A DNA stretch of 64,000 bases from Desulfomonilia bacterium. GTDB taxonomy: Bacteria; Desulfobacterota; Desulfomonilia; UBA1062. A program made the position numbers and the translations under genes. The number at the start of each line of letters is the position of its first letter. The first letter of the stretch is position 1. The notes under the pieces were generated by a model that saw only the letters and a list, made by a program, of their open reading frames with translations, searched no databases and was not told where the DNA came from. The stretch is taken from contig CAXXDQ010000007.1 in the NCBI GenBank assembly GCA_963664325.2, positions 768,001-832,000 of the forward strand, given 5' to 3'. Shown piece after piece: positions 42,940 through 45,979 of this stretch.

Positions 42940-43674
42940 TTACATATCTCCCGATATCCGGACCAGCACGACGGTAATATTATCTTTCCCGCCCCCCGCC
43001 TTCGCCAGGTCGATCAGGCCCGATGCCATCTCCTCAAGAACGGAATAATTATTCATGCATTTTTCAATGGCCGCATCATCGGCCATGTCGGTCAGACCGT
43101 CGGAACACAGGAGATAAACATCACCCTTGACCGCCTTTGATTTGATTATATCAAGGCTGAAATTCTCCTCGACTCCGACCGCACGCAAGATCACATGCCG
43201 CATCTTGTGCTTCTTCGCCTCCTGGGCAGTAATTGCCCCCTGGTCTATCTGCTCCTGGATCAGTGAATGGTCTCTGGTTACCTGTTTCAGCATGCCGCTC
43301 CTTAACCTGTAGGTCCTGCTGTCGCCGACATGGCCTATTACAATAAGATCGTCCGACAGGCTGAGAAGCTCTGCCGTCGTACCCATTCCCCTGTGATCAG
43401 GGAAAAGCATGATATGTTCGCGTATATTGCCGTTAGCCGTTATGTAAGTCTGCTGGACAGGAAATACGGGGTCACCCTTATCACCCTGCACCCACTCTTC
43501 ATAGATATCAACCGCTGCATCCACGAAGATCCTGCTGGCAATCTCTCCTGCCGCAGCACCTCCCATGCCGTCGGCCACAACGCATAAGTTAAGGTCTTCC
43601 CTTATGAGATATGAATCTTCGTTATTGGCTCTTTTCAGTCCGGGATCGGTTTTTCCGAATGTGATTATCTTCAT
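42940..43674 (-). CDS. PP2C-family Ser/Thr phosphatase (Stp1/PrpC type)
   Basis: RANNED, VADGMGG, MGTT, HVGDSR, CSDGL, GGKDNIT. Confidence 0.95.
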   Translation of the reverse strand: MKIITFGKTDPGLKRANNEDSYLIREDLNLCVVADGMGGAAAGEIASRIFVDAAVDIYEEWVQGDKGDPVFPVQQTYITANGNIREHIMLFPDHRGMGTTAELLSLSDDLIVIGHVGDSRTYRLRSGMLKQVTRDHSLIQEQIDQGAITAQEAKKHKMRHVILRAVGVEENFSLDIIKSKAVKGDVYLLCSDGLTDMADDAAIEKCMNNYSVLEEMASGLIDLAKAGGGKDNITVVLVRISGDM

Positions 43675-43735
43675 ATATTACACGACTCATACCACTTGAC
43701 AGGCTGCTGATTCAAGTTGTACTTGAGGCAATATT

Positions 43736-44683
43736 ATGAAAATGCCCCCTATAATCACGGTTCAGCTGATCCACCTTCAGGGGCCGATGAAAGGCCAGAT
43801 CCAGGAATTCTCTGAAAACACCATATCCATAGGCCGCCAGGCCGACTGCAGCGTGCAGTTCCCAAAGGATATGACAACGATATCCCGCCTGCATGCCGAA
43901 ATTGAGCGAGACGGCAACCGCTTTAAGCTCACCGACAAAAGCGCGAACGGCACTTTCGTCAATGGCAAGAAAATAACTGAAACCTACCTTAAAGACGGTG
44001 ACGTCATAATGTTTACGGAAGGCGGACCGAAAGTCAGCTTTATTGCCGCAATTTCCGAAGCGCCTGCTGAAACCGCACCGATTATTGCTCCTCTACAACC
44101 AAAGCATGAGCCGGTGATTACATCGCCGATACCCGCGCCTGTACCACCGGTCTTGACACAGGAGCCTAAGGCGCAAAAACAGGCTTTTGTTCCACCGGTT
44201 CCGGAACCGCCCAGACCGGTTCCCGAAACGCCAGTGCGGGCAGCCTTTGACGGTGCTCAGGAAAAAGTTCAGGTTCCGCTGATGATACAGTTCGGCCCGG
44301 CACTGCGCTCATACAAAGAGCTGCCGGTCACAATCGGGAAAAGCCCTTCAAGCGGATTTGTCATGGCGCATCCGGACATTTTGGAAAATCACGCGCAGAT
44401 ACTTTTCAGCCAGGGCGCATACAGAATAAGAGACCTTACAGGGAAAAACCTGATAAAGTTAAACGGCAGAACAATTGAGTTCGAGACGGCATTATCCACT
44501 AATGACGTTATACACCTGAGCCCGAACGGTCCTGCGCTGCGTTTCCTCGGCGAAGGAAGGCTCGCAGAGCACGAAGAAGCCACTGCTGAAGATGAAATAG
44601 CAGGGCCTTCAGTAACTCCCGCGCCCCATAAAGAAGAAAAATCAAAAGGCCTGAAAGGTTTCATGGATTTGTTCAAGAAATAG
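43736..44683 (+). CDS. double FHA domain protein with Pro-rich linker
   Basis: FHA1 canonical (IGR..SRLH..SANGTFVNG); FHA2 degenerate (IGK..ENH..GKN). Confidence 0.9.
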   Translation: MKMPPIITVQLIHLQGPMKGQIQEFSENTISIGRQADCSVQFPKDMTTISRLHAEIERDGNRFKLTDKSANGTFVNGKKITETYLKDGDVIMFTEGGPKVSFIAAISEAPAETAPIIAPLQPKHEPVITSPIPAPVPPVLTQEPKAQKQAFVPPVPEPPRPVPETPVRAAFDGAQEKVQVPLMIQFGPALRSYKELPVTIGKSPSSGFVMAHPDILENHAQILFSQGAYRIRDLTGKNLIKLNGRTIEFETALSTNDVIHLSPNGPALRFLGEGRLAEHEEATAEDEIAGPSVTPAPHKEEKSKGLKGFMDLFKK

Positions 44684-44779
44684 AATCTTCGCTTGTATTA
44701 AATACAACATAAAGCAGGCTCAGCTGATATACGATAATCAGGATGCCTTTTCATATCAATTAGAACATAAGGTAGTGGG

Positions 44780-44824
44780 TCAGTTTGAATTTAGGAGATT
44801 TATAATTTCCTCGATTGACCATTT
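44780..44824 (-). pseudogene. C-terminal remnant of an IS1-like transposase
   Basis: Translates KWSIEEIINLLNSN* with the stop inside the TIR; resembles, from memory, the WS.EE.. ending of IS1-family transposases. Confidence 0.55.
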
Positions 44825-44839
44825 AATAATGAAAAATAA

Positions 44840-45442
44840 TTATTTTTTATTTTTAGCCGGATCATGCTTATCCACATCATTTATCGGTAAACCCTTTTGC
44901 TTCAAAATATAATCACGCAACAGAACACCAAAGACAGACATAATATCTTCTACTAAAAGACCGCGATTATAGGCTTCCTGTTTTACCACTAATAATTCAT
45001 TATCGTTAAGACATGATATCATTTTTTCTTTTGCGACACGCATTGATATCATTTGTATATCATAGGCATTGTTAGGCTTATCGGTCTCCACCTCCCTAAC
45101 AAGGTCATAAATACACCTATTCAAGATATCATTGCCGTTTATCTTTTTTACTATTTCTTTTCCAACTTCAGTCAACATTATTGGACTCATAGACGCCACC
45201 GGTCTTTTTGAACCCAAGGTATGATCATATATCAGATCAATCTTGGTTTCTATTTTAATAACCTTTTCGGCAAGATTTTCATTATGCTTAATTTTTTCAT
45301 CAAGAAATTTGAATGTCGTTTTCCATTTACCTGTCCATTTACCTGTTTTATATAGACCAGAACATACAATAATCACAAAGATTATTAATACGAAAACACT
45401 ACTATTTAGTTGTTTAATAAGTTCTAATAATATCGGCCACAT
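44840..45442 (-). CDS. cargo protein, N-terminal TM plus coiled coil, unknown function
   Basis: 200-aa AT-rich ORF inside the TIRs; TM at residues ~16-31; SPIMLTEVG motif. Confidence 0.75.
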   Translation of the reverse strand: MWPILLELIKQLNSSVFVLIIFVIIVCSGLYKTGKWTGKWKTTFKFLDEKIKHNENLAEKVIKIETKIDLIYDHTLGSKRPVASMSPIMLTEVGKEIVKKINGNDILNRCIYDLVREVETDKPNNAYDIQMISMRVAKEKMISCLNDNELLVVKQEAYNRGLLVEDIMSVFGVLLRDYILKQKGLPINDVDKHDPAKNKK

Positions 45443-45593
45443 ATAGTCCTGTTCAAATCAAAAGAAGGATGTAAATACAAATTATTTTGTTAAAAATAAA
45501 TATATTAGTAATCTCCTAATCCCATGGTCTGAAAATTTTGTCAACTACCCACCTGTCAGATTTGTTGGAACTAATACACTTCAAAATTACAGA

Positions 45594-45824
45594 TTAAGTT
45601 TTTATCCAACGCGCCTTAGCCGCCTTCTCTGCTATCTCCTTGCGCCTTTCAGGAGATAGCTTATCCTTTCTGGCCTTGCCACCCTTAAGCCCCCCAAGTC
45701 TCCCCAGCGCAACAGCAGCAGGGTTCTTTTCTGTTTTGGTCTCTGTTGGTACTTGTCCTGTAGCTTCTGCTACGATCTGGAAGGCAAGACTATTAATGTC
45801 GATGAGTCTTTTCTTTTTAGTCAT
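45594..45824 (-). CDS. small basic protein, KNPAAVALGRLGGLKGG family (often labelled histone H1-like)
   Basis: KNPAAVALGRLGGLKGGKARKDKLSPERRKEIAEKAAKARW motif. Confidence 0.85.
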   Translation of the reverse strand: MTKKKRLIDINSLAFQIVAEATGQVPTETKTEKNPAAVALGRLGGLKGGKARKDKLSPERRKEIAEKAAKARWIKT

Positions 45825-45979
45825 GCCATGATATTAGCATGACCGGTTAAGCATTACAAGGTGGGGTTATTTCAAACTGACTCACTACCGAACATAATGA
45901 TATGAGAATATGCCAGTCGGGCTCAATCCCTGTTTAAGTCATGTAGGTTTTGCCTGGACAGCCATTTATTCAAAATCGA

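Follow-up and report, generated by a model that had tools for sequence, protein, structure and literature searches.

The locus described here raises the question of what kind of object is represented by a short stretch of bacterial DNA that has the ends and the target duplication of an insertion sequence (IS), holds two intact genes and contains no transposase gene. It lies within 64,000 nucleotides of the genome of a Desulfomonilia bacterium (Desulfobacterota; assembly GCA_963664325.2, contig CAXXDQ010000007.1, positions 768,001 to 832,000), a stretch referred to throughout as the window and to whose first letter coordinates are related unless a contig or locus is named. An earlier note on this DNA had described the element as an IS1-like cassette in which a small basic protein was kept and the transposase was replaced by a foreign gene, and had proposed that it might belong to a swappable gene-delivery system. 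The combination of IS ends with a passenger gene in the absence of a transposase leads to the view that the window copy is the mobile insertion cassette of a passenger-carrying IS, and it is very probable that the element is such a cassette, a non-autonomous derivative of an insertion sequence of the IS1 family.

The element is 1119 bp in length (44771-45889) and is bounded by 19-bp terminal inverted repeats (TIRs), separated by 1081 nt, in which 18 of the 19 positions are paired and which the repeat search scored as 95% complementary; the right-hand repeat (45871-45889) reads TTCAAACTGACTCACTACC on the plus strand. The octanucleotide GAACATAA abuts the element on both sides as an exact 8-bp duplication. 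A scan for the end pattern allowing up to three mismatches returned two matches only in the 64-kb window, both at the ends of the element, and in none of 100 shuffled sequences was there a match. Two intact open reading frames (ORFs) lie inside, both on the minus strand, encoding the small basic protein (SBP) of 76 amino acids and the passenger protein of 200 amino acids, the latter from an AT-rich gene (GC 0.32, against 0.474 for the window); apart from a tail of 14 codons there is no transposase gene. The dimensions, repeats and duplication had been seen in the sequence by the earlier note, as had the two genes, the larger of them read as coding for a membrane protein, and all are borne out. 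SBP, passenger and transposase tail follow one another in that order and are co-oriented, with 151 bp between the two genes and about 15 bp between the passenger stop and the tail. DNA likeness to the IS family is confined to 45889-45584, which covers the SBP-side repeat (IRL), the leader and SBP, and to 44797-44771 at the opposite repeat (IRR), and the 786 bp between them (44798-45583), consisting of the passenger gene and a spacer, have no such likeness. The genes on either side of the element are convergent, with their 3' ends facing it.

The claim that a transposase had been lost, leaving a 14-residue tail whose stop lies in the TIR, stood up to comparison with intact relatives. The tail, KWSIEEIINLLNSN followed by a stop codon (44780-44824), is identical at 9 of 14 positions to the C-terminus of the intact transposase of locus L113. 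As a control, 59,912 windows of 14 residues from a six-frame translation of positions 30001-60000 were compared in the same way, and the tail alone reached 8 or more identities, the next best score being 7 in four windows. The compact autonomous copies end in VWSIEEMLALLDSN and a stop, the final SN and the stop codon being encoded by bases of the end repeat. The C-termini of three such transposases read ADHVWSIEEMLALLDSN (L113), AWTIDEIVALLDSN (L074) and VWTLREIAALLDSN (L066), each followed by a stop, and in all three the end repeat itself supplies the codons for the final two residues and the stop, which is the same arrangement as that of the tail in the window. An autonomous partner with a transposase of this ending had been predicted, and one was found elsewhere, L113 ending in W-S-I-E-E-...-S-N with its stop in the end repeat, but none was found in the element's own genome.

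The family to which the ends belong was established from copies in other genomes. A search for TIR pairs in this genome and its relatives, as the earlier note had advised, gave three ends in the own genome and ends with varied contents elsewhere: with at most one mismatch the end repeat was present in 38 of 122 species genomes of the host class, the window's own included, and at the same threshold it was absent from the three other species of the host genus. Sixteen TIR pairs were compared, 15 of them same-contig pairs from the class genomes and the other the window's own. They span from 55 bp to 5843 bp. The duplication is an exact one of 8 bp in ten pairs (that of the window included) and of 9 bp in one, it matches at 7 of 8 positions in one more, and it is missing from the remaining four. 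Nine of the TIR-bounded units encode a single-ORF transposase of 276-312 amino acids with an N-terminal helix-turn-helix. The L025 transposase (288 amino acids) matched the Pfam family DDE_Tnp_IS1 with 28.8 bits against a cut-off of 24.1, and homologues on plasmids of cultured bacteria, 53-58% identical along 98-99% of the length, carry the annotation 'IS1 family transposase'; a copy on a Mesorhizobium loti plasmid has perfect TIRs and the 8-bp duplication CGCTGGTG. Across 30 aligned transposases D70 and D142 do not vary and E206 hardly does, and these residues are likely to form the catalytic triad. The ends begin with GGTAGTG and are conserved across the family.

Members of the IS1 family have short terminal inverted repeats beginning with GG and produce target duplications of 8-9 bp (ISfinder). 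Classical IS1 makes its transposase from the two frames InsA/InsB' by a -1 frameshift and the family also has single-ORF members, so that a single-ORF transposase speaks against membership of the classical IS1 group and not against membership of the IS1 family; the ISMhu11-type subgroup of single-ORF, non-frameshift members in ISfinder is presumably the nearest. Judged by its ends and by the profile match of its autonomous relatives, the window element, which itself keeps 14 transposase codons, is derived from the IS1 family, and with no transposase inside it is non-autonomous, as the earlier note had held.

The same note had treated the small basic gene as something kept in the cassette. It is indeed kept, but it is not cargo: SBP belongs to the core of the IS lineage. 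All nine full copies found through their ends have an SBP homologue next to one end. A scan with an SBP alignment, in one genome per species, matched 586 stretches, of which 428 encode relatives, and 80 loci were retained (two of them, L050 and L056, duplicate L036 and L038 of the class survey). Record titles place these loci in Acidobacteriota, Actinomycetota, Chloroflexota, Bacteroidota, Planctomycetota, Nitrospirae, several proteobacterial groups and one Methanoperedens metagenome-assembled genome (MAG). In 52 of the 80 a transposase lies downstream of SBP and is co-oriented with it. Where at least 130 bp of upstream DNA was available (76 loci), and with up to four mismatches allowed in the end repeat, 53 loci have a TIR no more than 250 bp upstream of the start of SBP, at a median distance of 71 bp, and 13 others have one at 250-1000 bp; in the window the start of IRL is 65 bp from that of SBP. 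The leader extends the likeness beyond the end repeat in the window, L034, L035 and L036. Complete elements found through SBP (n = 34) are 1852-4417 bp long, and 27 are flanked by an exact duplication of 8 bp. From this linkage of SBP, TIR and transposase across loci follows the canonical order of the element, namely IRL, a leader of about 70 bp, SBP, optional genes, the DDE transposase, optional genes and IRR, with a gap of -6 to 1644 bp between the end of the transposase and IRR. Much reduced forms were also seen: L090 (1982-2400) is a miniature of 419 bp made up solely of IRL, SBP and IRR, with a duplication matching at 6 of 8 bases, and the end pairs of L032 (301-490; 190 bp) and L039 (1963-2017; 55 bp) are non-coding. 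The locus from a Candidatus Methanoperedens sp. record (L097) has SBP, a TIR 74 bp upstream with one mismatch and an N-terminal fragment of the transposase, and if the binning of that MAG is right the IS family crosses domains.

What SBP does is less readily established. The protein has a pI of 10.5, and at least 7950 of the 8000 candidates scored in a database search were relatives at E<=0.001; among the matches listed no Pfam domain occurs, and those few with a name are for the most part 'hypothetical'. Relatives are labelled 'histone H1' in automatic cluster names of the protein atlas and in the record of the M. loti plasmid. The best Pfam match is one of 13.3 bits against a cut-off of 27, and nothing was found in NCBIfam or PADLOC. 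An alignment of 37 sequences has 17 invariant columns, including KN, AL-G, LGG and GG motifs and a final RW, and AlphaFold gave a low-confidence model of four short helices with a predicted local distance difference test (pLDDT) score of 65. A predicted complex between the L113 transposase and its own SBP scored 0.28 against a mark of 0.32, a value that speaks neither for nor against such a complex. SBP is intact in the transposase-less copies of the window, L076, L083 and L090, and the existence of SBP-less copies with exact duplications (L022 and L023) indicates that it is unnecessary in cis. It is about an even chance that SBP serves the IS as an accessory protein or regulator that binds nucleic acid. 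In the gap between SBP and the transposase of three loci there is a gene on the opposite strand (L036 2057-3118, L037 2239-3249 and L038 1681-2829) for a protein of 336-382 amino acids. Those of L036 and L037 match the Pfam family P63C, that of L037 also matches phrog_2384, and that of L038 has no Pfam match. All three have an N-terminal GG-KARA-LSPE-R-IA-KAA-RW that is the C-terminal motif of SBP, and this likeness suggests that SBP and the P63C-type proteins may share a module.

Elsewhere the same ends enclose other genes, as had been anticipated, and restriction-modification and toxin-antitoxin genes are prominent among them. L025 carries an MmeI-like restriction-modification enzyme in two ORFs and L095 an EcoRV-like endonuclease with a D12 methylase; L060 and L071 each have a SocA/Panacea antitoxin-domain protein with an unknown partner, and L023 has a Gp49/HigB-like toxin with a helix-turn-helix protein. 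DUF3800 was found in L037 and L101, NYN in L024, Bro-N in L104, an HTH-M78 peptidase in L083 and a weak Abi_2 match, below the cut-off, in L115, and there are many further passengers without a family, several of which have membrane segments. When 21 slots between transposase and IRR were compared the passenger ORFs proved to be mutually unrelated, with the exception of duplicate loci and of one family common to L036 and a solo end on contig C2 of the window's own genome. Passengers occupy at least three sites, between IRL and SBP, between SBP and the transposase, and between the transposase and IRR, and their breakpoints differ. The long copies have no internal end repeat after the transposase stop, and the ORFs scanned yielded no recombinase besides the DDE transposase. 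Four copies without a full transposase nevertheless have an exact duplication: L023, L022 (with a transposase remnant of 156 amino acids), L076 (SBP and a helix-turn-helix cargo gene) and L083, which with SBP, cargo and a 38-residue transposase tail is the closest analogue of the window element. A RES-domain toxin with an MbcA/ParS/Xre antitoxin on an Acidiphilium multivorum plasmid (L181 3383-4221) was considered as cargo and rejected, the pair lying outside the ends and the duplication; it abuts the IRR of an intact copy on that plasmid.

The 200-residue passenger protein of the window belongs to a family whose cluster representatives number 756 at E<=0.001, falling to 189 at E<=1e-10 and to 29 at E<=1e-30, with lengths mostly of 190-200 amino acids. 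A single hydrophobic segment lies near the N-terminus of the passenger protein (residues 12-30, Kyte-Doolittle 2.53), and the AlphaFold model (pLDDT 93.3) has a long N-terminal helix (2-75) opening with the membrane segment and followed by a helical body. Among 55 aligned sequences P87 never varies and S86, G94, Y127, D128, Q130, K154, G161, R176 and D191 are near-invariant. There was no credible match in Pfam, NCBIfam, PADLOC or PHROGs, the best in Pfam being Sulfolobus_pRN with 16.5 bits, below the cut-off; a profile search of PDB sequences gave a best E of 0.5, Foldseek comparison of the model with PDB and BFVD gave nothing at E<=0.001, and the protein atlas yielded 'hypothetical protein' clusters only, with tailed phages the commonest known taxon in two of the three nearest. 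No homologue at E<=1e-5 occurs in the other 121 class genomes. On the basis of its low GC, this lack of a class homologue and the interruption of the IS-like DNA from 45584 to 44797, the passenger is judged to be of foreign origin.

The contexts of passenger homologues were sampled in 54 metagenome loci found with an alignment of 11 rows. The GC of the gene is below that of the surrounding DNA in 49 of them, and 12 have marks of the same IS family. The neighbours of the gene were scanned in five further loci. In one it lies downstream of the gene for a phage Rha regulator, at a distance of a few hundred bases, in another it adjoins an SNF2 helicase and a PD-(D/E)XK nuclease, in two more it stands amid housekeeping genes, and in the fifth (L149 3292-5921) it lies between the genes for a Dit-like tail protein and the baseplate hub gp41, a position typical of a phage accessory ('moron') gene. 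The passenger is read here as an accessory gene borne by phages and other mobile genetic elements. That it acts in defence or exclusion is a guess, and a rather doubtful one. Likeness between the DNA of the window passenger and that of its homologues stays within the coding region, so that the junctions are uninformative.

The features of the element are collected in Table 1. An Rfam scan gave no match at E<=0.1, promoter-like sites (7 against 5.8 expected) were no more frequent than in shuffled sequence, and no terminator was found. A degenerate internal copy of IRR at 45504-45568 was tried as a candidate and rejected, its alignment score of 22 being reached by 54 of 500 shuffles. To the left of the element, at 42940-44683, a PP2C-type phosphatase-like protein of 244 amino acids and a protein of 315 amino acids resembling double FHA-domain proteins were read by eye.

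Table 1. Features of the transposase-less element, with coordinates in the window
Feature	Coordinates	Strand	Remarks
Target-site duplication, left copy, GAACATAA	44763..44770		Identical to 45890-45897
IRR, transposase-distal terminal inverted repeat, GGTAGTGGGTCAGTTTGAA	44771..44789	+	Repeat search and pattern scan
Transposase C-terminus remnant, KWSIEEIINLLNSN and stop	44780..44824	-	Stop TGA (44780-44782) inside IRR
Passenger gene, 200 amino acids	44840..45442	-	ORF list; one N-terminal membrane helix, all-helical body, unnamed family
AT-rich spacer upstream of passenger gene	45443..45593	-	No DNA likeness to IS family
SBP gene, small basic protein, 76 amino acids	45594..45824	-	Motif KNPAAVALGRLGGLKGGKAR..LSPERRKEIA.KAAKARW; linked to end repeat and transposase
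Leader between IRL and SBP start	45825..45870	-	Conserved in family
IRL, SBP-side terminal inverted repeat, GGTAGTGAGTCAGTTTGAA on minus strand	45871..45889	-	Repeat search and pattern scan
Target-site duplication, right copy, GAACATAA	45890..45897		Sequence

The own genome (4.31 Mb in 9 contigs, 95.6% complete) has three copies of the end repeat, these being the pair in the window and a single copy on contig C2, together with one copy of SBP, one of the passenger and no intact transposase of the IS family. The solo repeat (C2:267054-267072, one mismatch, a GGA variant) is followed by the gene for an AT-rich membrane protein of 235 amino acids (L003 1501-2275) that is 42% identical to the passenger beside IRR in L036; this gene is followed by neither a transposase nor SBP nor another end, and the locus resembles a second element of the family that has been truncated and carries a different passenger. 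About 80 kb before the window, at C7:688413-688587 (L026 1492-1644), there is a transposase C-terminal remnant of 50 residues ending in ADHEWTIDEVLELLK and a stop, convergent with a 91-residue ORF of unknown family and without a recognisable end repeat, which is a third, more decayed relic. With no intact transposase in the assembly the cassette would now be stranded, and the window copy is probably an immobile relic.

As to how the cassette arose, the simplest history would be one in which a passenger first settled in the gap between SBP and the transposase and the body of the transposase was then deleted, although direct substitution of that body by the passenger is equally possible. The element would have inserted between the two convergent genes by ordinary DDE transposition, the transposase, supplied by the element's own intact ancestor or in trans, binding both 19-bp ends and making a staggered cut that yielded the 8-bp duplication.

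Other readings of the same facts have to be considered. In a dedicated cassette system the ends and SBP would form a platform for the specific exchange of passengers, much as in integron cassettes, and such a system could draw on the variety of genes enclosed by the same ends, on the retention of SBP in the several transposase-less copies named above and on the occurrence of IS marks in 12 of the 54 sampled loci of the passenger family. It is very unlikely, however, as passengers are spread over three slots with differing breakpoints and variable gaps, SBP-less derivatives such as L022 and L023 have exact duplications too, and neither a recombinase besides the DDE transposase nor a conserved junction motif was seen; nor is there an internal end repeat after the transposase stop or a significant internal end copy in the window, and the likeness among passenger homologues does not leave the coding region. 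The earlier proposal of a swappable gene-delivery system was to that extent overstated, there being variable slots and no conserved junction or recombination site to be seen.

A reading in which SBP and the 200-residue protein form a two-gene module, with SBP as regulator of a membrane effector or the pair resembling a toxin-antitoxin system, that makes use of IS ends would suit their common orientation, their separation by no more than 151 bp and their being the sole intact genes in the element. It is made extremely improbable by the observation that SBP accompanies the transposase whatever the passenger, in the nine full copies as in the 34 complete elements, by the presence of a homologue of the 200-residue protein in none of about 100 IS-family loci compared, and by the occurrence of that protein family without SBP in prophage-like and other contexts. 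Whilst the AT-rich interior, with its repeat-prone composition and many weak repeats, might raise the suspicion that inverted and direct repeats had come together by chance around ordinary chromosomal genes, the chance of this is practically negligible given the empty result from the shuffles and the presence of the same 19-mer around 8-bp-duplicated elements in dozens of genomes.

There remain a number of points that tell against the interpretation of the element as an IS1-derived mobile insertion cassette, or against parts of it. The best NCBIfam model for the L025 transposase, an IS1 equivalog, gave 49 bits, which is below its cut-off of 100. The role proposed for SBP draws on composition, on the automatic 'histone H1' label and on conservation, and the predicted structure is a low-confidence one (pLDDT 65). 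Mobilisation of the window copy in trans would be by analogy with L022, L023, L076 and L083, where the exact duplications were found. Eight of the 12 IS-marked passenger loci have IRR, then the passenger, then a convergent transposase, an order unlike that in the window, so that the window arrangement is no simple deletion product of that form. At 95.6% completeness of the assembly an autonomous copy may have gone unassembled, and a separate low-depth contig in the source sample (run X3, record 3; 3025 letters, depth 2.7) matches the window at 44771-44792 (the end repeat) and at 45605-45628 (SBP-like) with 1205 other letters between the matches; this is enough room for a transposase, and the contig may represent an autonomous relative within that sample. 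An empty site did not turn up in the genomes and runs compared. The genus relatives G001-G003 match the coding part of the left flank only, with 75-77% identity, have a different gene 36 bp past the left-flank gene and have the right flank elsewhere or not at all. The runs X1-X4, which are of one sample, probably the source, carry the stretch with the element, and no joint skipping it was found in them.

The cassette is best placed by comparison with systems already described. Among mobile insertion cassettes, MIC231 of the Bacillus cereus group is derived from the IS4 family, and Siguier et al. reportedly dealt in 2009 with IS1595, IS1 and passenger genes. From classical IS1 the present lineage differs in lacking the InsA/InsB frameshift pair and in having the extra conserved SBP gene upstream, and the transposase is missing from the window copy and the NCBIfam IS1 score of the lineage falls short of the cut-off; a DDE transposase of the family DDE_Tnp_IS1, GG-initiated ends of about 19 bp and duplications of 8 bp, rarely 9 bp, are common to both. 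Miniature inverted-repeat transposable elements are likewise non-autonomous and bounded by the ends of the parent, and L032 (190 bp) and L039 (55 bp) are true miniatures of this kind, whereas the window element, with 1119 bp and two intact ORFs, is too large and too much of it is coding. An integron-like platform is not suggested by boundaries without a conserved recombination site and by scanned ORFs without a dedicated recombinase. Both mobile insertion cassettes and transporter IS have already been named in the literature, in a part of PMC3129680, the latter term being applied in portions of PMC3129680 and PMC7986276 to IS copies with passenger genes. Mobile insertion cassettes as set out in that part of PMC3129680 resemble the window element in having IS ends and a target duplication around one or more passengers, no transposase and presumed movement in trans; the window cassette is unlike them in coming from the IS1 family and not the IS4 family and in retaining the SBP gene and 14 codons of the transposase tail of its parent. 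As in transporter IS, to go by the same portions, the autonomous relatives carry passengers within their ends and transpose as a unit with 8-bp duplications, unlike the window copy with its lack of a transposase, and the passengers of the lineage are rich in restriction-modification and toxin-antitoxin genes. The variable cargo of Tn7-like transposons, as described in PMC8649781, is similarly dominated by defence and addiction genes, but their transposition machinery is unrelated, and the present element is far smaller and has no target-selection module.

The cassette itself is an ordinary class of object, and it is the IS lineage and SBP that appear to be largely undescribed; a literature search, with ISfinder and subscription papers outside its range, found no paper that describes the lineage or links 'IS1 family' with 'histone H1'. 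A bolder proposition would be that this IS1 lineage is a pan-phylum vehicle of defence and addiction genes, that SBP is a new nucleic-acid-binding cofactor and that the passenger is an undescribed exclusion or defence factor, which taken together is speculative and rather unlikely. If it were true SBP might organise the ends or counter silencing, and a cofactor role would explain the survival of SBP in transposase-less copies, including the 419-bp L090. The lineage is in any event an unusually conserved one within IS1, its 19-bp ends being nearly identical across loci labelled with many bacterial phyla and in the one archaeal MAG, that of Methanoperedens. Recognition of SBP would correct many annotations of 'hypothetical' and 'histone H1' proteins and provide a simple marker for these elements, and as their passengers are rich in restriction-modification systems, toxin-antitoxin systems and conserved proteins of unknown function, the slots would be a cheap place in which to seek defence-type genes.

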